Below, piece by piece: positions 495-15,812 of a stretch of DNA of 64,000 bases. Position numbers and translations under genes: made by a program. This stretch comes from an uncultured Acidimicrobiales bacterium (lineage in GTDB: Bacteria; Actinomycetota; Acidimicrobiia; Acidimicrobiales; Aldehydirespiratoraceae). The DNA lies in assembly GCA_958296055.1 (NCBI GenBank), contig CATQHS010000001.1, positions 225,917 to 289,916 on the forward strand, given 5' to 3'. Positions within the stretch are counted from its first letter, which is position 1. Each line of letters begins with the position of its first letter. Under the pieces are notes generated by a model that saw only the letters and a program-made list of their open reading frames with translations, ran no database searches and was not told the origin of the DNA.

Positions 495-1586
495 CTACCA
501 CTCGGGGGCCACGGACGAGTCATCGGCGTTGTCCGCCGTGACTTTGACTGACGGCATGAACTCAACGATCCGCGCGGCGGGGTCGTTGGTCAACACCTGG
601 TGAGCGACGGTGACAGCGTGTTCGCCATCCCACGATGAGGACTGGAAGACCGTTCCGTCCAGCTCTCCCGACACCACCAGCGGGTTGCCGAGGAAGGTGT
701 TGCCGATGGAAGTGATGATCATGTCGGCCGGATCGATACCGCGGGCCTTCAGCGCGTCTATCACTCCGGCGACCATCGTGTCATCGGCGGCATAGGCGCC
801 TTGGATGTTCTCCGCGCCGACCGCGGAGATCATCTCCGAGGCTGCGAGCTGAGAATCGTCCTTGTTCCAGTTGCCCGGCTGCCGGGCCAGGATGGTGACA
901 TTGGCACACTGCTCATTGATCGTGTCCTCGAAGCCGTTCTCACGGTCGATGGCCGTGGAGTTGCCGGTCAGGCCGTTGACCATAATGATGCCGATGTCCT
1001 GTCCATCGGCAAACTCGCACATCAGTTCGCCGGAGGCCGCCCCTTGCCCGTAGGTATCGGGCCCGGAGTAAGCCTCAGTGAGATCCTTGTCCTCGGGGTT
1101 CACATCTGAGTTAGTCACCGTGACGGGAATGCCCGCATCCTTAGCCGCCTCAAGGCACGGACGCACAGTGTCGCCCACGGCTGGCCAGAGAATGATCAGA
1201 TCGGGGTTGGCCGCAACGGCCACCTCGCACTCGCTAGCCTGCTTATCGGCATCGTACTGAGAGTTGGTGATGTTCAGATTGATTCCCAACTCGTCGGCCT
1301 TGGCCATCATCGGAGGCAGATAGGTGGTGCCGTACGGCTGGTCGTTCCCCTGAGGCAACAGCGCGAACACCTCGTATTGTGCCGCCGCTTCAGTCGTTGC
1401 CGCCGCCTCAGTCGTCGTCGCCGTTGACGCGGCCGAGCCGGAACTCGAATCGTCCGAATCGTCGCCGCCGCACGCCGCGAACAGCAACGACGCGGCGACG
1501 ACTAAGCCGAGGCTCAGCACTCTGAAGGGCGTGATTTTCGATTCTTTCCTGTGGTTATCCATTATTTGTTGCCTCCTTAGGGTCAA
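495..1586 (-). CDS. Sugar-type ABC transporter substrate-binding lipoprotein (PBP1/RbsB-like)
   Basis: 363 aa ORF. It has a signal peptide with lipobox LLFAAC-GG and a Thr/Ala/Ser linker, and periplasmic binding protein type 1 similarity throughout. An alternative start at Met9 (1562) is possible. Confidence 0.85.
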   Translation of the reverse strand: MTLRRQQIMDNHRKESKITPFRVLSLGLVVAASLLFAACGGDDSDDSSSGSAASTATTTEAAATTEAAAQYEVFALLPQGNDQPYGTTYLPPMMAKADELGINLNITNSQYDADKQASECEVAVAANPDLIILWPAVGDTVRPCLEAAKDAGIPVTVTNSDVNPEDKDLTEAYSGPDTYGQGAASGELMCEFADGQDIGIIMVNGLTGNSTAIDRENGFEDTINEQCANVTILARQPGNWNKDDSQLAASEMISAVGAENIQGAYAADDTMVAGVIDALKARGIDPADMIITSIGNTFLGNPLVVSGELDGTVFQSSSWDGEHAVTVAHQVLTNDPAARIVEFMPSVKVTADNADDSSVAPEW

Positions 1587-2616
1587 CGCTTGGTTTTGAA
1601 AGGACCGAACCGCCCCGAAGGAAGGAGCGAACGCTCCCCGATACGGCGCGGATGCTGTTGGGGTCAGAGATCACTGCTATGAACAGGACTGACCCGATGA
1701 TGATGTTTTGCACATCGACTTGAACGACCGAGAGGGTGAGGGCAACCTGCAAGATGCCGAGCGACGTCGCTCCGAGCAGGGTTCCGAACACGGAACCGCG
1801 CCCGCCGTTCAGCAGGATGCCACCGACGATTGCCGCCGCGAAGCTCGACAGCAGCACGGTTGAACCTGCGGTCGGGTCGGCGGCCGTGCGCTCGAGGGCG
1901 TTGATCACCCCGGACCCCGCGGCCACTAGCCCCGAGATCATGAACCCGGTGAAGATGCGGCGCCGAACCGGTATGCCGGCGTCGCGGGCGGCCTGACGAT
2001 TGCCTCCGACTGCATAGAACTCTCGGCCCACCCGAACTCGCGTCAAGAACAAGTGCATGACTATGAAGGTGAAAATGAATAGGAGTATTCGGGGAGTGAA
2101 CTCGCCGATCAACGGCTTGCCGAACGAAATGCCTGCATCAATGTTCGACAGTCGGACGGGTTCTTCGTCGGAGATGACGAAGGCCAATCCTCGCAGCAAG
2201 AACAACATGCCCAAGGTGGCTATGAACGAGTTTATCCCTACTACGACGACGAGAAAGGCGTTGGCAGCACCGATCAGAAGACCAACCACTAGTGCGGCGA
2301 TAATACCGAGAGCGAGATTGTCAATGCTGGCCATGACTACGCCAGCTACAGCCAGCGTGCTGGCCACGCTCAGGTCCAACTCACCCATCAATATGACCGC
2401 GGTCAGCCCGAGCGCTACCAGTCCAACCAAGGCAATCCGGCCGAGTGTTACCTGATAAGAGGTAAAGGCCACCGGTTGGGTGATCCATGTGCCGGTAGCC
2501 ACCACGACCAACAAGGCCAAAGCACGCCCTTCGGTCCGACGGGCCAAAATGGTTCGAACCTTGCTGGCAAAGCCGCGGCGCTCTTGTCGGAGAACTAACC
2601 CTTGGGGTCGGGTCAC
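1555..2616 (-). CDS. ABC transporter permease (RbsC/branched sugar permease family)
   Basis: 353 aa multi-pass hydrophobic protein with permease-family similarity. It overlaps neighbouring cistrons in an operon arrangement. Confidence 0.85.
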   Translation of the reverse strand: MTRPQGLVLRQERRGFASKVRTILARRTEGRALALLVVVATGTWITQPVAFTSYQVTLGRIALVGLVALGLTAVILMGELDLSVASTLAVAGVVMASIDNLALGIIAALVVGLLIGAANAFLVVVVGINSFIATLGMLFLLRGLAFVISDEEPVRLSNIDAGISFGKPLIGEFTPRILLFIFTFIVMHLFLTRVRVGREFYAVGGNRQAARDAGIPVRRRIFTGFMISGLVAAGSGVINALERTAADPTAGSTVLLSSFAAAIVGGILLNGGRGSVFGTLLGATSLGILQVALTLSVVQVDVQNIIIGSVLFIAVISDPNSIRAVSGSVRSFLRGGSVLSKPSVDPKEATNNG

Positions 2617-3662
2617 TTTCCCGCCGCCCTTCTAGCTAGGGCATCCACCGACACCGCGGCGGCTATCAGCGCTCCGATCGCCATCTGCTGATAGCCGAAT
2701 CCCAGACCAGATAGCACCATTATGTTTGTGAGAACGCTCACAAACACTACGCCAAGCAGAGTTCTTAGCACACTTCCCTTGCCGCCAAAGACGCTGGTAC
2801 CGCCGACGATGATGGCGGCCAGTGCCTCAAAATCGAACCCGCTCGACATCGCTGACACTGCCGTGTTTGAGAAAGCGGCTAGGACGAACCCGCCAATAGT
2901 AGAACCTAGGGCTGAGATCAAGAAGGCACCGACGACGACTAAAGCGGTGTTGACCCCTGCTAGTCGAGTGGCGTTTCGGTTGGAGCCGTACGACTTGAGC
3001 AGGAATCCAAAAGTTGTTCGATTGAGCAAAAAGTGTAGCCCTATGGCAATTACAACGAGCACAATCATCGACAGCGGGAACGGCCCTATCTCTGTTGTCC
3101 CGAAAGATCTAATGGGTCCGTCACTTGGCCCGAAATATATGCTTCCCCCGCTGGCCCATCGCAAGAGACCTAAGCCTATGAAAGTCGTCGACAAGGTTAC
3201 GATAACGGCGTTGGCTTTGAACACGCCTACGGCAACTCCGTTGACAATGCCGTAGGCAAGAGCAATCAACAGGGCCAACCCTATGGCCATAGGAATATTA
3301 GAGTTATTGCTAACTCCAATGAGGACAACAGCCGCAGTGGCCACTTGCGCCACCACTGAAAGATCGAGATAGTTGGCGCTGATGACCACGAAGGTCATGC
3401 CCACCGCGACGATTCCGATCGGCGCGGCACGGTGGAAGACGTCGGTGATGTTCTCGAGCGAGGCAAAGCCGTCTATGAACAGGGCGGCGATCAGAACCAG
3501 AGCGGCTGTGAAGAAGAATATACCGCGGTTGGCCATCTGTTCGAGGACATGAAGCTTGCGCCGTTTGATGTCCGGGTCGGCCCCGCCGCGGTCGCCGAGA
3601 TCCGCCGTTCGGGCCGCCGCCTCGGAAGTTGTCGTCGCCTCGCCCGAGGCCTCGCTGGTCAT
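2613..3662 (-). CDS. ABC transporter permease (second RbsC-like subunit)
   Basis: 349 aa hydrophobic protein with 4-nt start/stop overlaps on both sides. Confidence 0.85.
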   Translation of the reverse strand: MTSEASGEATTTSEAAARTADLGDRGGADPDIKRRKLHVLEQMANRGIFFFTAALVLIAALFIDGFASLENITDVFHRAAPIGIVAVGMTFVVISANYLDLSVVAQVATAAVVLIGVSNNSNIPMAIGLALLIALAYGIVNGVAVGVFKANAVIVTLSTTFIGLGLLRWASGGSIYFGPSDGPIRSFGTTEIGPFPLSMIVLVVIAIGLHFLLNRTTFGFLLKSYGSNRNATRLAGVNTALVVVGAFLISALGSTIGGFVLAAFSNTAVSAMSSGFDFEALAAIIVGGTSVFGGKGSVLRTLLGVVFVSVLTNIMVLSGLGFGYQQMAIGALIAAAVSVDALARRAAGK

Positions 3663-5215
3663 GCGGCCACGGTCGCCTCGCCCGACGCCAGCGACATCAC
3701 CAGCTTCTCGTCGGCCTCCTCCGCCGTCAGCGTGCCCACGATTCGCCCGTCCCTAAGGATGTGGATGACATCGGACAGCTCGAGGAGCTCGGGCAGGTCC
3801 GAGCTCACCATCAGCACCGCGGCCCCGCCGTCGGCGAGATCTTTGACCAAGCGGTGTATCTCGACCTTGGCCCCCACGTCCACGCCCCGGGTCGGCTCGT
3901 CGAGGACGACGACGTCGGGCCGTCGGCCCAGCCACTTGGCCAGCACCACCTTCTGCTGGTTCCCGCCGCTGAAGTCGCCGACCTCCCGCCGGATCTCCGG
4001 CGGCCTCAGCCCCACAGTCCGGGCCAGGCCCAAGGCGAAGTCCGCGATCTTGCGGAACAGCAGAACGCCGCTGCGCGACAGCCGGCCGCGGTTCGGGAGC
4101 GCGACGTTCTCCGCCACCGTCATGGTCAGGGCCAAACCGTCGGTGCGGCGCTCCTCGGGGACGTAGGCCAGGCCGCCCGCCACCGCGGCCCGGATGCCGG
4201 CGACGCGCCGGGTCCGCCCGCCGGCTGCGACGGTCACCTCGCCGGCGGACCTGAGGTCGGCCCCGATGATCGCCCTCACCAGCTCTGTGCGACCCGCCCC
4301 CACCAGTCCCCCCAGCCCGACGATCTCGCCCGCCCGAACTTCGAGATCGACGCCGTCGACCCCCGGCGCTCTGATCCCTCGGGCCTGCAGCACGACTGCG
4401 CCGGGCTCGGCCGGCACCCGATGGGTCTGGAGGTCGAGCGCGAGTTGGCGGCCGACCATCTGGTCGACGAGATCCTGCGGCCTGGTGTCTGAGATGGCGG
4501 CGGTGTCGACATGCCTTCCGTCCCGCAGGACGGTCACCCGGTCGCAGATGCGGAAGATCTCGGGGATCCGGTGGGAGATGTAGATGATGGCCAGGCCCCG
4601 CCGCGACAGCCGCTGCAGCATGTCGAGCAGGTAGTCGGTCTCGGTCGGCGTCAGCGTCGCCGTCGGCTCGTCGAGGATCAGCACGCGCGGCTTGCGGGCC
4701 ACCGCTCTGGCGATCTCGACGAACTGGCGCAGCGCCACCGACAGCCTCCCGATGGGCTCGTCGAGGTCGACCGACACCCCGATCTCGTCGAGCGCCTCGG
4801 CGGCGATCCGCTTCAGCTCCCCGGTCTTGATGAGCCCCGCCCGGGTCGGCGTGGAGCCGAGAAGGATGTTCTCGGCCACGGTCATCTCCTCCACCAGGCT
4901 GAGCTCCTGGTGCACGAGCGCGATGCCGGCTTCGAGCGCGGCCCGGGTGTCGCCAGCCTTGAGCTCTTCGCCGTCGACGACCACGGCCCCGCGGTCGGGC
5001 GAGAGGATGCCGGCCAGAACGCGCATCAACGTGGACTTGCCCGCGCCGTTCTCCCCTACCAGGCCGTGGATCTCCCCGGGCGGCACGGCCATGCTGACCG
5101 AGTCGACGGCCACCGCCCCGCCGAAGCGCTTGACGATGCCCCGCGCCTCGATGATGGCGTCGCCGGTTCGGGAGGGGTCTTCGGGCAGAGCGTCGCTCTC
5201 GTCCACGACATCCAT
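3659..5215 (-). CDS. Sugar ABC transporter ATP-binding protein (duplicated ATPase, RbsA-like)
   Basis: 518 aa with Walker A GENGAGKST, signature LSGGNQQKV / LSVALRQ and Walker B ILDEPT in two tandem ABC domains. Confidence 0.9.
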   Translation of the reverse strand: MDVVDESDALPEDPSRTGDAIIEARGIVKRFGGAVAVDSVSMAVPPGEIHGLVGENGAGKSTLMRVLAGILSPDRGAVVVDGEELKAGDTRAALEAGIALVHQELSLVEEMTVAENILLGSTPTRAGLIKTGELKRIAAEALDEIGVSVDLDEPIGRLSVALRQFVEIARAVARKPRVLILDEPTATLTPTETDYLLDMLQRLSRRGLAIIYISHRIPEIFRICDRVTVLRDGRHVDTAAISDTRPQDLVDQMVGRQLALDLQTHRVPAEPGAVVLQARGIRAPGVDGVDLEVRAGEIVGLGGLVGAGRTELVRAIIGADLRSAGEVTVAAGGRTRRVAGIRAAVAGGLAYVPEERRTDGLALTMTVAENVALPNRGRLSRSGVLLFRKIADFALGLARTVGLRPPEIRREVGDFSGGNQQKVVLAKWLGRRPDVVVLDEPTRGVDVGAKVEIHRLVKDLADGGAAVLMVSSDLPELLELSDVIHILRDGRIVGTLTAEEADEKLVMSLASGEATVAA

Positions 5216-6705: not shown

Positions 6706-7770
6706 ATGACCACGATGGTCTCCCACGAGGAGTACGGCCGCCAACCGCCCGTCCGCCCGGCCCCGGTGGACCCGTCCAACGCCGAGCTGCCCATCGACCT
6801 CGACATGCGCCTGCGGCTCTACCGGCTGCAGCAGGAGATGCGGCTGTTCGAGAAGCGGGTACATGACCTGTTCCTCCGAGGCCTGGTGAAGGGAACCAGC
6901 CACCTCTCCATCGGCCAAGAGGCGGTGGCCGCCGGGTTCGGGGCGGCCATGCGGCCCGACGACTGGACCTTCGCCACCTACCGGGGCCACGCCCACACCC
7001 TGGCCCGGGGGGTGCCCATGGGGCCGGTGATGGCCGAGCTGCTGGGACGGGCCGACGGCCTGATGGCGGGCAAGGGCGGGTCGATGCACCTCACCAGCGT
7101 CGACCACGGGGTCATGGGCAGCTACGCCATTATCGGCGCCCACCTGTGCGTGGCCAACGGCGCGGCCTGGACCGCCCAATACCACGGCACCGAGCAGGTG
7201 GCGGTGGCCTTCTTCGGCGACGGCACCACCAACATCGGCGCCTTCCACGAAGCCCTCAACTTCGCCAAGGTGTGGAACCTGCCGACCGTGTTCGTCTGCG
7301 AGAACAACCTGTACATGGAGTACACCCCCATCGATCAGGTCACCGCGGTGGCCGACCCCGCCGCCGGCCGGGCCGCGGCCTATGGGCTCGACCCGATCCT
7401 CATCGACGGCAACGACGCCGACGCGGTGTACACCGCGGCCGCCGCCGCCCTCGGCCGGGCCCGCGGCGGGGAGGGCCCCTCGCTCATCGAGGCGGTGACC
7501 TACCGGCACGGCGGCCACAGCCGGGCCGACCCCGGCACGTACCGGCCCCAAGAGGAGGTCGAGGCCTGGCTCGAACGCGATCCGATCCCCATGTACCACC
7601 AGCGGCTGCTCCGCCTGGGCGTCGATGAGGGGGATCTGAGCGTCATCGTTGCCAAGGCCGCCGCCGCGGTGGACGCCGCCGCCCAACAGGCCGTCGACGG
7701 GCCGGACCCGGACCCGGCCTCGCTCCACACCGACGTGTGGGCCGACGGAGGCTCCTCATGGCGCAACTGA
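6706..7770 (+). CDS. Thiamine-diphosphate-dependent 2-oxoacid/acetoin dehydrogenase E1 alpha subunit
   Basis: 354 aa with the TPP-binding motif GDGTTNIGAFHEALNFAKVWNLPTVFVCENN and YRGH/YRHGGHS motifs typical of E1 alpha. Confidence 0.85.
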   Translation: MTTMVSHEEYGRQPPVRPAPVDPSNAELPIDLDMRLRLYRLQQEMRLFEKRVHDLFLRGLVKGTSHLSIGQEAVAAGFGAAMRPDDWTFATYRGHAHTLARGVPMGPVMAELLGRADGLMAGKGGSMHLTSVDHGVMGSYAIIGAHLCVANGAAWTAQYHGTEQVAVAFFGDGTTNIGAFHEALNFAKVWNLPTVFVCENNLYMEYTPIDQVTAVADPAAGRAAAYGLDPILIDGNDADAVYTAAAAALGRARGGEGPSLIEAVTYRHGGHSRADPGTYRPQEEVEAWLERDPIPMYHQRLLRLGVDEGDLSVIVAKAAAAVDAAAQQAVDGPDPDPASLHTDVWADGGSSWRN

Positions 7771-7837
7771 CCCGCCCCGGGACCGGCGGCGGGCCGGTCC
7801 GCTGCCGGGGCCGCCGCCGAGCGGATGGAGGCTCGTC

Positions 7838-8815
7838 ATGGCGGAGATGACCTACCGCGAGGCGGTGGCCGCGGGCATCGCCCAGGAGATGGACAACGAC
7901 CCCAGCGTCGTCTTCCTGGGCGAGGACGTGGCCGGGGCCGGGGGCGTGTTCAAGACCACCGTCGGGCTGCTGGAGCGCTTCGGGCCCGAGCGGGTCCGCG
8001 ACGCCCCCATCTCCGAGCAGGCCATCCTGGGCGCGGCCATGGGCGCGGCCATGACCGGCCTGCGGCCCATCGCCGAGATCATGTTCAGCGACTTCTTGGC
8101 CGTGTGCTGGGACATGACGGCCAACCAGATCGCCAAGGCCCGGTACATGGCCGCCGGGCAGTTGGCGCTGCCGCTGGTGATCCGCACCGCCAACGGCGGC
8201 GGGTCCCGGTTCGGGGCCCAGCACTCCCAGAGCGTCGAGAGCTGGGCCATGTCCGTGCCCGGCCTCAAGGTGGCGGCCCCCTCCACCGCGGAAGACGTGA
8301 TCGGCCTGCTGGCCGCGGCGGTGCGCGACCCCGATCCGGTCGTCTTCTTCGAGCACAAGTCCTGCTACCCCATGAAGTTCGACGTGGCCGACCGGGGCGG
8401 CGACATCGTTGACGAACTGGGCCGGGCCAAGGTGGTGCGGGCCGGCGCGGACGTGACCATCGCCGCCCTGGGCCTCATGGTCCACCGGGCCTCAGAAGCG
8501 GCCGACCGGCTAGCAGCCGAGGGCATCGACGCCGAGGTCATCGACCTCCGCTCGCTGGTACCCCTCGACACCGAGACGCTGCTGGCGTCGGTGGCCAAGA
8601 CCAGCCGGCTCTTCACCGTGGAGGAGAACCCCCGACTGTGCGGCTGGGGAGCCGAGATCACGTCGATCGCCGCCGAGGAGGCCTTCTGGGACCTCGACGG
8701 CCCCATCGTGCGCATCACCACCCCGCACGTGCCGCTCCCCGCAGCCGACTCGCTCGAAGACGCCGCCCTCCCCACCGCCGAGCGCATCGCCGAGACCGTC
8801 CGCCGGGCGCAATGA
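7838..8815 (+). CDS. 2-oxoacid/acetoin dehydrogenase E1 beta subunit
   Basis: Homology starts at MAEMTYREAVAAGIAQEM (ATG 7838). The upstream 63 codons of ORF 7649..8815 are Pro/Arg-rich and overlap E1 alpha, so I trimmed them. Confidence 0.85.
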   Translation: MAEMTYREAVAAGIAQEMDNDPSVVFLGEDVAGAGGVFKTTVGLLERFGPERVRDAPISEQAILGAAMGAAMTGLRPIAEIMFSDFLAVCWDMTANQIAKARYMAAGQLALPLVIRTANGGGSRFGAQHSQSVESWAMSVPGLKVAAPSTAEDVIGLLAAAVRDPDPVVFFEHKSCYPMKFDVADRGGDIVDELGRAKVVRAGADVTIAALGLMVHRASEAADRLAAEGIDAEVIDLRSLVPLDTETLLASVAKTSRLFTVEENPRLCGWGAEITSIAAEEAFWDLDGPIVRITTPHVPLPAADSLEDAALPTAERIAETVRRAQ

Positions 8816-8891
8816 ACCCCACGAACGGCGACCTCTCGGACTCCCCGACCGACTACCCGGCCAGCCGCCTCGCCGGCCTCCCGACCGGCCA

Positions 8892-10340
8892 ATGACCGGC
8901 CGCCTCTCAGATCTGCCGACCGACTGCTACATCGGCGGGCAGTGGCGCGGCGCGTCCGACGGGAGGCGGTTCAACGTGGAGGACCCGGCGACGGGCGAGT
9001 TGGTCGCCGCCGTGGCCAACGGCACCGTCGAGGACGGCCTGGCCGCGGTGGCCGCGGCCGACGCCGCCTCCGCGGGCTGGGCGGCCGCGTCGCCCCGACG
9101 GCGGGCCGAGGTCCTCCGGCGGGCCTTCGAGCTGATGACCGAGCGGGCCGACGAGATCGCCGAGCTGATGGTGCGAGAGAACGGCAAAGCCCTGGCCGAC
9201 GCCCGGGGCGAGGCCGCCTACGCGGCCGAGTTCTTCCGCTGGTACGCCGAGGAGGCCGTCCGGGTCCTGGGTGCCGTCGGTCCGGCCCCGGCCGGCGACA
9301 AGAAGATCCTCGTGCTGCACCAGCCGGTGGGGGTGGCGGTGCTGGTCACGCCCTGGAACTTCCCGGCGGCCATGGCCACCCGCAAGATGGGCCCGGCCCT
9401 GGCCGCGGGCTGCGCCGTGGTGTTGAAGCCCGCGTCGGACACTCCGATGACCGCCCTGCTAGTGGCCCGCATCCTCGAAGAGGCGGGAGTGCCCCCGGGG
9501 GTGGTCAACGTCGTGCCGTCGAGGCGGTCGGGGCCGGTGGTCAGCGCCATGCTGCACGATCCCAGGGTTCGCAAGCTGTCCTTCACCGGCTCAACCGAGG
9601 TGGGCCGGATGCTGCTGCACGAGGCGGCCGACAACGTGGTCAACGCCTCGATGGAACTGGGCGGCAACGCCCCGTTCGTGGTGTTCGACGACGCCGACCT
9701 CGATGCGGCCATAGACGGGGCCATGGTGGCCAAGATGCGCAACGGCGGCGAGGCCTGCACCGCGGCCAACCGCTTCTACGTGCAGCGGGGCGTGGCCGGC
9801 CAGTTCTCCGGCCGCCTGGCCGAGCGGATGGCCTCTCTGGTGGTCGGCCCCGGTCTGGGCGAGGGGGTGGAGTTGGGGGCGCTGGTCAACGCGGCCGCGG
9901 TGGACGGGGTTCACGAGCTGGTGGAGTCGGCGGTGGCCGCGGGCGCCGCGGTGCTGACCGGGGGCTCGCCGCTGGAGGGGCCGGGCCATTTCTATCCCCC
10001 GACGGTGCTCGGGTCGGTCCCGCCCGACGCCGGGATACTGCGAACGGAGATCTTCGGCCCGGTCGCGCCCATCGTCGAATTCGACGACGAGAGCGAGGCG
10101 GTGAAGCTGGCCAACGACACCGAGTTCGGCCTCATCGCCTACGTCTACACCTCCGACTTGGCCCGGGGCCTGCGGGTGTCCGAGGCGCTGGAGGCGGGCA
10201 TGGTCGGGCTGAACCGGGGCTTGGTCTCGGATCCGGCCGCGCCCTTCGGAGGCGTGAAGCAGAGCGGCATCGGCCGGGAGGGCGGGCACGACGGCTTGCT
10301 CGACTACCTGGAGAAGAAGTACGTCGCCGTCGACTGGTGA
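8892..10340 (+). CDS. gabD: NAD(P)-dependent aldehyde dehydrogenase, succinate-semialdehyde dehydrogenase-like
   Basis: 482 aa with ALDH motifs ELGGNAP, EACTAANR (catalytic Cys) and FGGVKQSGIGREGG. Overall it resembles GabD. Confidence 0.7.
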   Translation: MTGRLSDLPTDCYIGGQWRGASDGRRFNVEDPATGELVAAVANGTVEDGLAAVAAADAASAGWAAASPRRRAEVLRRAFELMTERADEIAELMVRENGKALADARGEAAYAAEFFRWYAEEAVRVLGAVGPAPAGDKKILVLHQPVGVAVLVTPWNFPAAMATRKMGPALAAGCAVVLKPASDTPMTALLVARILEEAGVPPGVVNVVPSRRSGPVVSAMLHDPRVRKLSFTGSTEVGRMLLHEAADNVVNASMELGGNAPFVVFDDADLDAAIDGAMVAKMRNGGEACTAANRFYVQRGVAGQFSGRLAERMASLVVGPGLGEGVELGALVNAAAVDGVHELVESAVAAGAAVLTGGSPLEGPGHFYPPTVLGSVPPDAGILRTEIFGPVAPIVEFDDESEAVKLANDTEFGLIAYVYTSDLARGLRVSEALEAGMVGLNRGLVSDPAAPFGGVKQSGIGREGGHDGLLDYLEKKYVAVDW

Positions 10341-10443
10341 CGGCGGTGGCCGGCAGCGGTGGGCCAACGACGGCAGGCTGGTGGCTGATGGCTGGTGGTG
10401 GCGGCGACGACGGTGAGCGGCGGTGGCCGGTGGCGGCGGGCTG

Positions 10444-11052
10444 ATGGCGGGCCGAGCGTCTAGTCGGCCGCTGAGGCTGCGTTTCGTCGCCTCGTTCGCC
10501 CGGGCGCGGGACCTGCCCGAGACCGAAGCCGAGATCGCCTTGGTGGGCCGGTCCAATGTCGGCAAGTCGTCGCTGATCAACGCGGCGGCCAACCAGCGCA
10601 ATCTGGCCCGGACCTCCAAGACGCCGGGCGCCACCCGCCTCCTCAACGCCTTCGAGCTGGGGTCGGAGGGTTCGGGGCGCTGGCTGGTGGATCTGCCCGG
10701 CTACGGCTACGCCCGGGCCTCCAAAGCCGACCAGCGGGCCGGGGCGGCCATGACCGAGGGCTACCTCGTCGACCGGGCCCCGCTGCGGGGAGTGCTGCAC
10801 CTGATCGACGGCGCCATCGGCCCCACCGCCTCAGACCTAGAGACCCGGGCCTGGCTGGCCGACATCGGACTGCCGGTGAGCTACGTGGCCACCAAGGCCG
10901 ACAAGGTGAAGCCCTCAGCGGCGGCGAGGCGCCGGGCCGAGCTGGCCGACAAGCTGGAGGCGGCCCCCGGCGACGTGTCGTGGGCCAGCGCCCGGACCGG
11001 CGCCGGAATCGCCGACCTGCGGTCTCGCATCCAAGCCTTGCTCGGGGATTGA
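10444..11052 (+). CDS. engB: Ribosome biogenesis GTP-binding protein EngB/YsxC
   Basis: G1 motif [13 protein letters not shown]3 DLPGYGY, G4 TKADK. The start is uncertain (10423 or 10444). Confidence 0.85.
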
Positions 11053-11147
11053 CCGCCGACCGTTCGGCCGTTCGGCCGCCGTTGGTCGCCGCCGCTTCGG
11101 GCGGCGCTCCCCCTGACCGTCACACCCGCTCACTACCGTGCGGGTCC

Positions 11148-12785
11148 ATGGGAGAAGGCGGGCCTGGCGAGGTGTTCACCCGGCGGTGGGTGGTGGAGCT
11201 GATACTCGACGCGGTCGGTTATCGGGCCGAGGCCGATCTCGGCGGCATGACGATCGTGGAGCCCTCGTGCGGACGCGGCGCGTTCTTGCTGCCCATCGTC
11301 GAGCGCCTGGTCCGCTCCTGCGCCCACCACGGCCGCCGCCTCGCCGACACGGGCGGCGCCATCCGGGGATTCGACCTCCTCGAGCACAACGTGGAGCACG
11401 TCCGCAAGGCGATGACAGTGAAGCTGCTCGAACTCGGCGAGTCGCTTGATGCGGCCGAGCGACTCTCGGACGGGTGGGCGACCGCCGGGGACTTCCTCCT
11501 CACCGACCACGGGCGGGGCCAGGCCGATTTCGTGGTCGGCAACCCGCCTTACATCCGCCTCGAGGACGTGCCGGCGAAGGTCAGCGCCGCGTACCGGGCC
11601 GAGTGCTTCACCATGCGGGGCCGAGCCGACGTCTTCGTGGGCTTCTTCGAGAAGGGCCTGGGGCTTCTGGCTCCCGGAGGCAGGTTGGCCTTCATCTGCG
11701 CCGACCGCTGGATGCGCAACCAGTACGGCGAGAGGCTCCGCGGCCTCGTGACCGAGGGCTATTCGGTGGACTCCGTCGTGACGATGCGCGAGGTGGACGC
11801 ATTCGAGGACGAGGTGTCCGCCTACCCCGCCATCACCGTGATGAGAAAAGGTCCGCAGGGGCCGGTCAAAGTCGTCGAAGCCGGTTCGACCTTCGACCAG
11901 TCCGCCGGCGATCAGCTCGTCGGATGGCTGGCCAGCGACGAAGGAGCCGTGCCCGCCGGAGAGTCCTTCGAGGCGGCCGAGCTCAAGGGATGGTTCGACG
12001 GCCGGGGACATTGGCCGGAGGGTCCGCCGCGCGCCTTGGAACTCCTCGCCGATCTGGAGGAGCGGTTCCGTCCCCTCGAGGACCCCCGGACCGGAACTCG
12101 GGTCGGCATCGGCGTGGCCAGCGGATGCGACGACGTGTTCGTCGTGAGGGAGGCCGCCGGCGTCGAGGAGAGCCGGCTCTTGCCGATGGTGACGGCCGCC
12201 GACATCGCCGCGGGCGAGCCGAGGTGGGGCGGCCGATACCTGGTCAACCCCTGGGACGACGGCCGGCTCGTGGATCTGGCCGACTTCCCCGGTTTGCGGG
12301 CCTACCTCGAGAGCCACGGGACTCGGGTCCGGTCCCGCCATGTGGCCCGAAGGCGGCCCGGGTCCTGGTACCGGACCATCGACCGGGTGGATCCGTCCCT
12401 GCGGTGCAGGCCCAAGCTCTTGCTGCCGGACATCAAGGCCTTCGCCCACCCGGTGCTGGAGCGAGGCGAGCTGTACCCGCATCACAACCTCTACTACGTC
12501 ACCTCCGACGCCTGGGATCTGGAAGTGCTGGGCGGGCTGCTGCTCTCCGACGCGGCCAACCTGTTCGTGGGGGCCTACTGCGTGAAGATGCGGGGCGGCA
12601 CTTATCGGTTCCAGGCCCAGTACCTGCGGAAGATCCGGGTCCCCGATCCGACCGTGCTGAGCGCCGATCAGTCGACCGCCCTCGCCGAAGCGTTCAGAGC
12701 CAGAGACCGCCGCTCGGCCACCGCCGCCGCCGCGGCCGCCTACGGCCTCGATGAATCAGACCTGTCGCCCCTGGCCGCCGCCTGA
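11148..12785 (+). CDS. N6-adenine DNA methyltransferase (gamma class, Eco57I/TaqI-like with C-terminal target-recognition domain)
   Basis: Motif I is [11 protein letters not shown] and motif IV is GNPPYIRLE. The long C-terminal domain resembles TaqI-like specificity domains. The start was trimmed to [14 protein letters not shown] (ATG 11148). I see no adjacent endonuclease. Confidence 0.8.
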
Positions 12786-12800
12786 TTTATGACTCGCTCC

Positions 12801-12914
12801 TCACTTCTTCCGCCTCTCAGAGACGGTCGTCTTTGGGTGCCGCTTGGCTGTGGATTCCTTGACGTACCGGCCAGTGATGGCCGAACGGTGGGACTTGCCA
12901 TTTGACTTACTCAC
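12801..12914 (-). CDS. Small basic hypothetical protein (37 aa), below the ORF-track size cutoff
   Basis: A GTG start lies 6 nt downstream of a perfect AAGGAGGTG Shine-Dalgarno (12921-12929). Translation is VSKSNGKSHRSAITGRYVKESTAKRHPKTTVSERRKK. It sits in a lower-GC patch right after the methyltransferase. Confidence 0.45.
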   Translation of the reverse strand: MSKSNGKSHRSAITGRYVKESTAKRHPKTTVSERRKK

Positions 12915-13010
12915 CGATTTTCACCTCCTTATCGAAATTAGGATCAAACCTGACCCTTCAGAATATACAAGAAAGTAATTACACTGGTGTGACCCTTGGT
13001 TCTACCCAAG

Positions 13011-13320
13011 CCTCCAAGACGCCGGTGTGCACTCACCTCCTTGACGTTCCGAGTTGGGACCGCGGCTCGGGACGCTGGCTGGTGGGGGACCTGCCGGCTA
13101 CGGCTACACCCGGGCCCTCCAAGGCCGACCAGCGGGCCTGAGTGGTCATGACTGAGAGCTAACTCATTGACCGTGCCCCGCTGCCGGGGGTGCTGCACCT
13201 GATCGACGGCCTCGTCGGCCTTCCGCCTCAGACCTCGACCCGGGCACGGCTGACCGACGCCAGGCTGCCGGTGGGCTACCTGGACACCGAGGCCAACAAA
13301 GGTGAAGCCCCTTCGCAGCG
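13011..13320 (+). pseudogene. engB: Degenerate duplicate of the 3' two-thirds of engB (displaced gene end)
   Basis: Collinear nucleotide similarity to 10611-10920, for example CTCCAAGACGCCGG, GCTGGCTGGTGG, GGCTACGGCTAC, GCCGACCAGCGGGCC, GTGCTGCACCTGATCGACGGC and GGTGAAGCCC, interrupted by indels and in-frame stops. Confidence 0.8.
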
Positions 13321-13615
13321 ACTAGACGATGCATCGAGCTAGCTAGCAGCAAGCTCGAGCGCGGCCCGGACGAACGTGTAGTGAATGAACGTCAGGGCCA
13401 AAACCAGGATAACGCCTTGGCCTCGTGACTTGGCGGCTTGAGCGTGTCGTACGTTCCAGTAATCGGCCACGGCGTTTTCGACGAGTTCGCGGTAGTCGGA
13501 GAGGTTGTAAGGCATCGGCTGGTCGATCTGGGCTATGACGGTGGGGCCAGGGTAAGCCCGATTGAAGGCCGGGCATGGCATTCGTTCGGTCATGGCATTC
13601 GTTGAGGAGGCGCTA

Positions 13616-14542
13616 GTGCGGGTGGGGGTCAACGCCATGCTGACCGACCGGTCGGTCGGACCGGCCGAGTTGGCGGTCGAGGCCGAGGCCCGGGGGTTCA
13701 CCGAGCTGTGGCTGCCCGAACACACTCACATCCCCGTGGGGCGCGAGACCCCTTGGCCGATGAACGAGGACGCCGAAATCCCTGAGAGATACCGGCGGAC
13801 GCTCGACCCATTCGTGGCCCTCACCGCCGCGGCAGCGGCCACATCGACCATCTCGCTCGGGACCGGGGTGTGCCTGGTGGCCCAGCACGATCCGATCATC
13901 CTGGCCAAGACCGCGGCCACCCTCGACTGTATGTCCAACGGCCGGTTCATCTTCGGCGTCGGGTTCGGCTGGAATGCCGACGAGATGCGCCACCACGGGG
14001 TGGACCCCGACCGGCGCCGGACCATCGGGCGGGAGAAGGCGCTGGCCATCCGGGAGCTGTGGACCCGGGCCGAGGCCTCCTTCCACGGTGCCTATGTCGA
14101 TTTCTCCGAGAGCTGGCAGTGGCCCAAGCCGGTCCAAGAGCCCCATCCGCCCATCTGGGTGGGCGGGGGCGCGTCGGTTCTGCGGCATGTGGTCGAGTGG
14201 GGCGACGGCTGGATGCCCATTCACGGAGTCATGCCGGTGGCCGAGCTCACCCGGAGGCTGCGGACCATGGCCGCCGAGGCCGGGCGCGACCCCAGCGGGC
14301 TCGCCGTTTACCTCGTCGGCCTGCCCCGCGATCCGACCATGGCCGAGGCGTACCTCGAAGTCGGGGTGGACGGGTTCGCTCTAGCCGTCACCGGCAATGC
14401 CGATCTCGATGCCGTCCGGCGCGACCTCGACGCCAACGCCGAGTTCCGCGACCGCTGGCTGACCCGTGAACCGACTCCGTGGATCGGCGATTCGGCCCGT
14501 GAGTCCCCGCCTCGGTCCGTGAGCAGGCGATTCATCCCGTGA
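13616..14542 (+). CDS. LLM-class (luciferase-like) F420/flavin-dependent oxidoreductase
   Basis: VRVGVNAMLT...ARGFTELWLPEHTHIP is typical of the LLM family. A GTG at 13616 is preceded by GAGGAGG (13604-13610). The ORF-track start at 13562 is probably too far upstream. Confidence 0.8.
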   Translation: MRVGVNAMLTDRSVGPAELAVEAEARGFTELWLPEHTHIPVGRETPWPMNEDAEIPERYRRTLDPFVALTAAAAATSTISLGTGVCLVAQHDPIILAKTAATLDCMSNGRFIFGVGFGWNADEMRHHGVDPDRRRTIGREKALAIRELWTRAEASFHGAYVDFSESWQWPKPVQEPHPPIWVGGGASVLRHVVEWGDGWMPIHGVMPVAELTRRLRTMAAEAGRDPSGLAVYLVGLPRDPTMAEAYLEVGVDGFALAVTGNADLDAVRRDLDANAEFRDRWLTREPTPWIGDSARESPPRSVSRRFIP

Positions 14543-15505: not shown

Positions 15506-15594
15506 TCCGGCCGGCGGGTCCTGTCACGGGCGCGCCAGCGCCGCCGTACGGCGACGCCGGACTTGCCCCCGTGCCACCCCCCGGCCTGGCGCAC
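15506..15594 (+). repeat. Palindromic ~90-bp repeat element, copy A (diverged interior)
   Basis: Shares CCGGCCGGCGGGTCCTGTCACGGG ... CCCCCGTGCCACCCCCCGGCCTGGCGCAC with the copies at 15843, 49001 and 50043. Confidence 0.75.
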
Positions 15595-15595
15595 C

Positions 15596-15812
15596 GCGCG
15601 CCGGGCCGGCTGCGCCCTAGACAACGCGGCGGCCGAGTCGTTCTTCTCGACCCCCCAACACGAACGGCTCTCACGAAGCGACTACGCCACCCGCGCCCAG
15701 GCCCGCCAAGATGTCGCCGCCTGGATCGACCAGTTGGTACAACCGCCGCCGCCGCCACTCTAGCACCGACATGCTCGCACCGATAGAGTACGAACTAGCC
15801 AACGCGGCATAA
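15596..15812 (+). mobile_element. IS3-family transposase (OrfB) C-terminal remnant, frameshifted
   Basis: Translation gives ALDNAAAESFFSTPQHERL...YATRAQARQDVAAWIDQ. After a 1-nt frame change it continues WYNRRRRHSSTDMLAPIEYELANAA*, the characteristic IS3 integrase-core C-terminus. No N-terminal or DDE part is present. Confidence 0.7.

Follow-up and report, generated by a model that had tools for sequence, protein, structure and literature searches.

What history is recorded where an intact housekeeping gene is followed by a ruined copy of its own 3′ part, with a DNA methyltransferase gene between the two? The question is raised by a 64-kb stretch of DNA from an Acidimicrobiia bacterium (hereafter the window), in which pseudo-engB, a decayed partial copy of engB, starts ~2.4 kb downstream of the intact gene copy in the same orientation, so that direct repeats bracket a methyltransferase gene (M) and a 37-codon open reading frame (s37). 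The original prediction for this locus was a single 2.4-kb integrative insertion that had brought in M together with a replacement engB 3′ end. We conclude that another history is likely: an old partial duplication of engB carrying s37 came to share one interval with a type II restriction–modification (R–M) module, and the s37–pseudo-engB unit now replaces most of the module's endonuclease gene (R). Judged from the sequences compared here, the interval between engB and a downstream LLM-class oxidoreductase gene (LLM) appears to be a variable slot of this Acidimicrobiia clade in which two unrelated things have accumulated. Its features in the window are as follows.

10444–11052, plus strand: engB, encoding the ribosome-biogenesis GTPase YihA/YsxC; intact, 202 residues, with an alternative GTG start at 10423.
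10605–11010, plus strand: functional upstream copy of the repeat, that is, the 3′ two-thirds of engB from about codon 52–55 on, placed by alignments.
11148–12785, plus strand: M, a gamma-class N6-adenine DNA methyltransferase of 545 residues, intact (PF07669 Eco57I, PF02384 N6_Mtase).
12786–13004, minus strand: low-GC cassette carrying s37 (48.9% GC versus 68% for the window).
12914–12801, minus strand: s37, gene for a 37-residue basic protein; GTG start, with a GGAGG box at 12928–12924, 9 nucleotides (nt) upstream.
13005–13411, plus strand: pseudo-engB, a truncated, frameshifted copy of engB ~10605–11010 in which the final ~40 nt of engB are absent.
13412–13515, minus strand: N-terminal remnant of an XhoI-family endonuclease (R), 34 codons (MPYNLSDY...AKSRGQG), collinear with 8399–8502 of the related locus L018.
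13616–14542, plus strand: F420-dependent LLM-class oxidoreductase, the right flank of the slot (TIGR03619, 265 bits; PF00296); syntenic in every clade relative.

The identity of EngB is supported by a profile search against TIGR03598 (172 bits, equivalog cutoff 124.45, residues 20–203 covered), and the decayed copy is real, as had been predicted. Local alignment of 10423–11100 with 12791–13420 pairs 10613–10982 with 13011–13383 at 302 identical columns out of 386 (78%; 85% outside gaps) and a score of 321, where 200 shuffles give 22.7 ± 2.5 and a maximum of 33; blastn finds 77.4% identity over 381 columns (E 4.5e-71), and tblastn matches EngB residues 55–154 to the copy at 53% identity. The proposed extent, 13011–13320, does match engB but is too short: a global alignment combined with the comparison with relatives sets the limits at ~13005–13411 against ~10605–11010. 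The expected lesions are also present, with at least 14 indel events, four in-frame stops (13139, 13160, 13379 and 13382) and substitutions skewed from GC to AT (54 versus 20 the opposite way). Pseudo-engB is decaying neutrally, and sequence searches of the 64-kb window found no further copies of it or of the low-GC patch. The functional gene has a ratio of nonsynonymous to synonymous divergence (dN/dS) of 0.28–0.32 between the window and relatives, in which the EngB protein is 89–92% identical to that of the window.

To place the arrangement in context, we compared it with about ten related metagenome loci, found by exact-protein look-up of M, s37 and EngB homologues; a scan of genome contigs for EngB returned only relatives at most 68% identical, none of them syntenic around engB. 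The conserved flanks of the slot (E1/E1-beta dehydrogenase, aldehyde dehydrogenase and engB on one side, LLM on the other) are 85–92% identical to the window at the nucleotide level, and five alleles can be distinguished between them.

Type A (L024/25): engB, s37 (minus), pseudo-engB reaching ~13 nt beyond the stop, a type III R–M system, LLM.
Type B (the window): engB, M, s37 (minus), pseudo-engB without its last ~40 nt, 34 codons of the R N-terminus (minus), LLM.
Type C (L018/19, L028, L033/34): engB, M, convergent XhoI-family endonuclease, LLM, without the pseudogene.
Type D (L021/22, L023, L030–32): engB, M, LLM, the endonuclease being cleanly deleted.
Type E (L026/27): engB, s37 (minus), ~20 nt of pseudo-engB fused into the interior of M (window-equivalent 11716), LLM.

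The type III system of L024/L025 (N6_N4_Mtase plus ResIII helicase-nuclease) occupies locus coordinates 1063–5215 on the minus strand, and its presence in the slot of the window's closest relatives is an allelic substitution between R–M types. In the outgroup L035, whose EngB is 77% identical, none of these elements lies beside engB.

These alleles point to s37, not M, as the constant companion of pseudo-engB. In L024 and L025, s37 alone lies between the engB repeats and the Eco57I-like methyltransferase is missing there, whereas relatives with a single engB copy (L018, L021, L023, L028, L030 and L033) retain M at the same site. The original prediction had itself asked beforehand whether relatives show the duplicated arrangement without the methyltransferase; that L024 and L025 do so contradicts a single 2.4-kb integrative insertion carrying M. 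A second proposed comparison, for relatives with engB followed directly by LLM, turned up no such empty site among all clade relatives examined; those free of the pseudogene carry M (L018, L021, L023, L028, L030–34). A local duplication followed by insertion, which had been offered as the fallback explanation, comes closer to the evidence than the single insertion did.

Several shared features reveal that the duplication is old. Where the s37 upstream region meets the beginning of engB homology (engB ~10598–10605), the joint is identical in the window, L024/25 and L026/27. The pseudogenes of the window and L024 have in common a frameshifting GG insertion, a GAGGGC>GAGAGC change and an ATC>GTC/GTT change that no functional copy has, and therefore the duplication was a single event whose product had become a pseudogene by the time these lineages separated. 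Neighbour-joining of the flanks yields three groups, each with 100% bootstrap support: {window, L024, L025}, {L026, L018, L033} and {L021, L023, L030}. The s37–pseudo-engB unit occurs in two of the three, L026 being sister to the type C genomes. A recent duplication within the window lineage, to which three derived states common to the pseudogene and the window's engB had pointed, was dropped given the lesions common with L024. The window's functional engB has, at 10735–10760, pseudogene-like states missing from other functional copies, for example ATGACC where others have ATGGTC.

The small gene is itself conserved. The lower-GC patch with a 37-residue open reading frame was correctly recognized at the outset; a promoter for s37 is presumed to lie in the upstream region, 12915–13004. 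Proteins 92–95% identical to s37 are encoded directly after engB in L024–L027, and dN/dS is 0.12–0.14; s37 is therefore under purifying selection.

The second resident of the slot is the R–M module. The assignment of M as a TaqI/Eco57I-like gamma-class enzyme was confirmed by a profile search (PF07669 Eco57I, E 1.7e-18; also N6_Mtase, PF02384), and the motifs EPSCGRGAF and NPPY are readable in its translation. Orthologues of M that are 84–87% identical lie at the same locus and adjoin an XhoI-family endonuclease gene in L018, L028 and L033. Its dN/dS of 0.19–0.23 against relatives, and of 0.23 between two orphan lineages, indicates that M is maintained by purifying selection. The synonymous divergence (dS) of M between the window and relatives is 0.34–0.41, about double that of the adjacent engB (0.18–0.22).

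M had been described as lacking an endonuclease partner, but the remains of one lie at 13515–13412 on the minus strand. The remnant is 75% identical to the L018 enzyme (tblastn, E 9e-14), which is intact and matches PF04555 XhoI with an E of 1.8e-43. It stays in register with four intact homologues for 34 residues and diverges afterwards; comparison with these four reduced an earlier estimate of ~57 codons, taken from the L018 gene call, to 34. The open frame continues into pseudo-engB sequence and ends at 13339. Thus the endonuclease beside the N6-adenine methyltransferase is intact in L018 and L028, and the window keeps the remnant only. M is the methyltransferase subunit of an XhoI/PaeR7I-type type II R–M module, now an orphan because its partner was destroyed in the window and not because it arrived alone. 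The M–XhoI pair also occurs in an unrelated context in L020, which points to mobility of the module.

The break in R can be located exactly. The window is 88–89% identical to L018 over 7000–11105 and 11157–12785 and 85% identical over 13412–14464, and between these blocks window 12786–13411 takes the place of L018 7702–8398, which lies inside the XhoI-family gene (its 3′ three-quarters). The s37–pseudo-engB unit replaces about the C-terminal 215 codons of R, its junctions falling directly after the M stop codon (12785/12786) and between R codons 34 and 35 (13411/13412); no flanking homology was found at either junction when the window was compared with relatives. The pseudogene therefore lies inside the R–M module, replacing most of R, and is not a displaced original 3′ end outside an inserted element as first proposed. 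R was inactivated independently at least three times: in the window by replacement of its 3′ part, in L021/L023/L030 by clean deletion and in L026 by deletion. The L033 gene is probably a fourth case, through a 44-residue in-frame deletion. This gene (9478–10164, minus strand) loses internally the ..IIELK.. region, in an M–R allele that otherwise looks intact.

The junctions, the alleles in relatives, the common pseudogene lesions, the R remnant and the selection on M and s37 are directly observed; the events that produced them would be the following. A tandem duplication of part of engB, beginning near codon 52 and ending shortly beyond the stop, would have placed s37 on the minus strand at the novel joint, and the downstream copy, without a 5′ end, would have been decaying neutrally since before the lineages of the window, L024 and L026 split. 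A type II R–M module, consisting of a gamma-class N6-methyladenine (m6A) methyltransferase and a convergent XhoI-family endonuclease, would have been the second resident of the slot. The ancestor may have had the order engB, s37, pseudo-engB, M, R, LLM, because the L026 fusion joint could form only if M lay downstream of the pseudogene. The clean engB–M–R–LLM allele (type C, L018) could then have come from homologous recombination between the engB repeats. The window is collinear with type C and D relatives from the end of engB across the intergenic region and into M, so its backbone would be this recombined clean allele. In the window lineage, a copy of s37 plus pseudo-engB would finally have been put in place of the 3′ ~215 codons of R, killing it.

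For this last step, illegitimate recombination, with template switching among the candidate routes, may have copied or moved the unit over ~2 kb. It is plausible that the unit was duplicated into R, in a templated or dispersed manner, and that its original was then lost through recombination of the repeats. Alternatively, a ~650-bp circle could have popped out through the engB repeats and undergone illegitimate re-insertion, or a tandem duplication of the block s37, pseudo-engB, M could have been followed by two deletions. The loss of R may have been tolerated or favoured since M stayed.

A number of observations weigh against this history. Neither the proposed ancestral order nor any intermediate is among the recovered alleles, the order resting on the L026 fusion joint and parsimony. 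To place M ahead of s37, as in the window, takes two or more events, of which one or more must be illegitimate, and the arrangement shows neither microhomology nor another signature that would point to a mechanism. The states common to engB and its pseudogene hint, at the sequence level, at gene conversion or crossover between the repeats, which would blur the date of the duplication. The doubled synonymous divergence of M could mean that its codons are constrained differently, or that lineages have exchanged the module horizontally to some extent. Finally, CTCGAG, the site that the module probably recognizes given its membership of the XhoI Pfam family, is only mildly depleted in the window (28 observed versus 45 expected, ratio 0.62).

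An unlikely alternative for the final step is that a fragment carrying s37 and pseudo-engB was captured from a co-occurring L024/L026-type relative and end-joined into a double-strand break in the R of an engB–M–R–LLM chromosome. The missing flanking homology at both junctions would fit such an event, as would the coexistence of unit-bearing alleles in the same sample series and the fact that the window pseudogene is about equally distant (78–80%) from every clade engB. However, the closest relatives by flank, L024/L025, carry the unit, which makes its vertical presence in the window's ancestor simpler; several states are common specifically to the window pseudogene and the window's own engB, and end-joining is without direct evidence.

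Also unlikely, in our view, is that the engB 3′ fragment and s37 form a minimal integrase-free mobile module, inserted here into R and inactivating it. The engB fragment would allow such a module to enter engB by Campbell-type homologous recombination, and a ~650-bp circle released through the resulting repeats would re-insert elsewhere. If true, s37 would represent a new protein family, its members small, basic and associated with plasmids, and would give the unit its selective value.

It is very improbable that the remnant of one ~2.4-kb integrative element, made up of a surrogate engB 3′ end, an orphan methyltransferase and a small open reading frame, entered engB at ~10611. The model for this proposal was the e14 prophage in icd, an element that integrates into the 3′ end of a gene and carries a surrogate 3′ end. 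The topology is indeed alike: a complete gene, intervening DNA and a displaced 3′ pseudogene fragment follow one another in the same orientation, 3′-end direct repeats stand at both borders of M and s37, the upstream copy completes the functional gene, and the low-GC patch lies at the right-hand limit of the DNA between the repeats. Unlike in e14/icd, the functional 3′ end bears no foreign signature. Functional engB is 0.89–0.92 identical to seven relatives in its 5′ part and 0.90–0.92 in its 3′ part; this lack of a similarity break at the repeat boundary, the supposed crossover, gives no sign of a foreign origin and argues against the claim that the insert supplied the 3′ end. The locus also differs in having no empty site in relatives, and in that the intervening DNA varies among relatives with the same pseudogene joint, the repeats of L024/L025 enclosing s37 alone. 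Relatives free of the pseudogene nevertheless have M in the same position, R being intact in L018 and L028, and the pseudogene interrupts R instead of flanking the module. As the original prediction had stated, no integrase remains: neither an integrase nor another recombinase was found between 10.4 and 13.6 kb of the window or in any related allele. The only mobility trace nearby is a C-terminal fragment of an IS3-family transposase (rve_3, E 2.9e-5) at 15563–15763 on the plus strand, downstream of an SDR gene.

That the metagenome-derived assembly falsely joined two alleles present side by side is conceivable, in that several slot alleles coexist in related samples and the source genome seems to be environmental, but is scarcely credible given that the exact M protein is found on two contigs of 3.27 and 3.28 Mb that are independent of each other, that the ~400-bp repeats, ~78% identical, are too diverged to mislead an assembler, and that the flanks diverge from every other allele by a uniform ~10–13% on both sides of each junction.

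Returning to the history of an old duplication and a resident R–M module, the closest known category is the orphan methyltransferase left by R–M decay, of which the locus is an ordinary, well-resolved example. As in other solitary methyltransferases derived from type II systems, an intact, selected M lies beside a truncated cognate R, and the orthologous loci of relatives hold the full pair, R having been lost repeatedly and M kept. The difference is that the 3′ three-quarters of the window's R are replaced by a small gene and a housekeeping-pseudogene fragment from 2 kb upstream. With the PaeR7I/XhoI systems the locus shares the match of the relatives' R to PF04555 and a partner that is a ~550-residue gamma-class N6-adenine methyltransferase with NPPY; this likeness is at the level of the Pfam family. 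A literature search linking PaeR7I, XhoI, CTCGAG and methyltransferase gave no match. PaeR7I recognizes CTCGAG, and m6A is made at the fifth base (PMC3031569).

Could the R–M module itself have caused the engB duplication on insertion? Insertion of R–M genes with long target duplication was reportedly described by Nobusato et al. in 2000. In Helicobacter pylori such insertions show repeats of ~370–420 bp without mobility genes, and were called where R and M lie inside duplicated borders, the target duplication exceeds 30 bp, the insert is under 20 kb, no other mobile element is present and the comparison genome is single-copy and without R–M (Furuta, Abe & Kobayashi 2010, PMC2853133). The window resembles these cases in its ~400-bp host repeats, its ~2 kb of bracketed DNA and, as that definition asks, its lack of mobility genes; another R–M type also substitutes at the locus (type III, L024/L025). 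In contrast to them, the window's repeats bracket M and s37 with the R remnant outside, to the right of the pseudogene, and in the sister lineages the repeats bracket s37 alone, while single-copy relatives keep the M of the R–M module. The duplication is therefore not attributable to insertion of an R–M module.

The locus thus offers a compact natural series of type II R–M decay, in which R was inactivated three or four times in one clade and M kept. An element-like repeat topology can come from rearrangements that involve a resident defence module and an older duplication of part of a gene, which calls for caution in the automated calling of genomic islands. Secondary leads are a conserved 37-residue protein family without annotation and a clade-wide avoidance of CAGCTG.

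The s37 family is characterized by the motif RSAITGRYV..TAxRHPKTTV, present singly (37–46 residues) or as a tandem double (64–67 residues). The query for the homologue search was padded to 40 residues. Members lie at window 12801–12914 (minus), L036 1298–1396, L037 3501–3596 and L029 6001–6198, and 30 actinobacterial plasmids, pMAB23 and pMM23 among them, carry the motif family; one occurrence lies beside AbiEii/MazE genes. Pfam, NCBIfam and PHROGs contain no model that matches the protein, phage records gave no match either, and a scan of metagenome contigs with a conserved 29-nt s37 pattern found no match.

CAGCTG, a PvuII-type site, is absent from the 64-kb window, where a maximal-order Markov estimate predicts 25.8 occurrences. 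It is likewise absent from every clade relative locus, namely L018 (0 versus 7.7 expected), L030 (0 versus 8.2), L021, L024, L026, L033 and L035; in L001, L004, L005 and L020, which are more distant, its frequency is as expected. This absence across the clade loci, set against the normal frequency in distant ones, suggests that the lineage has long had a restriction system specific for CAGCTG.

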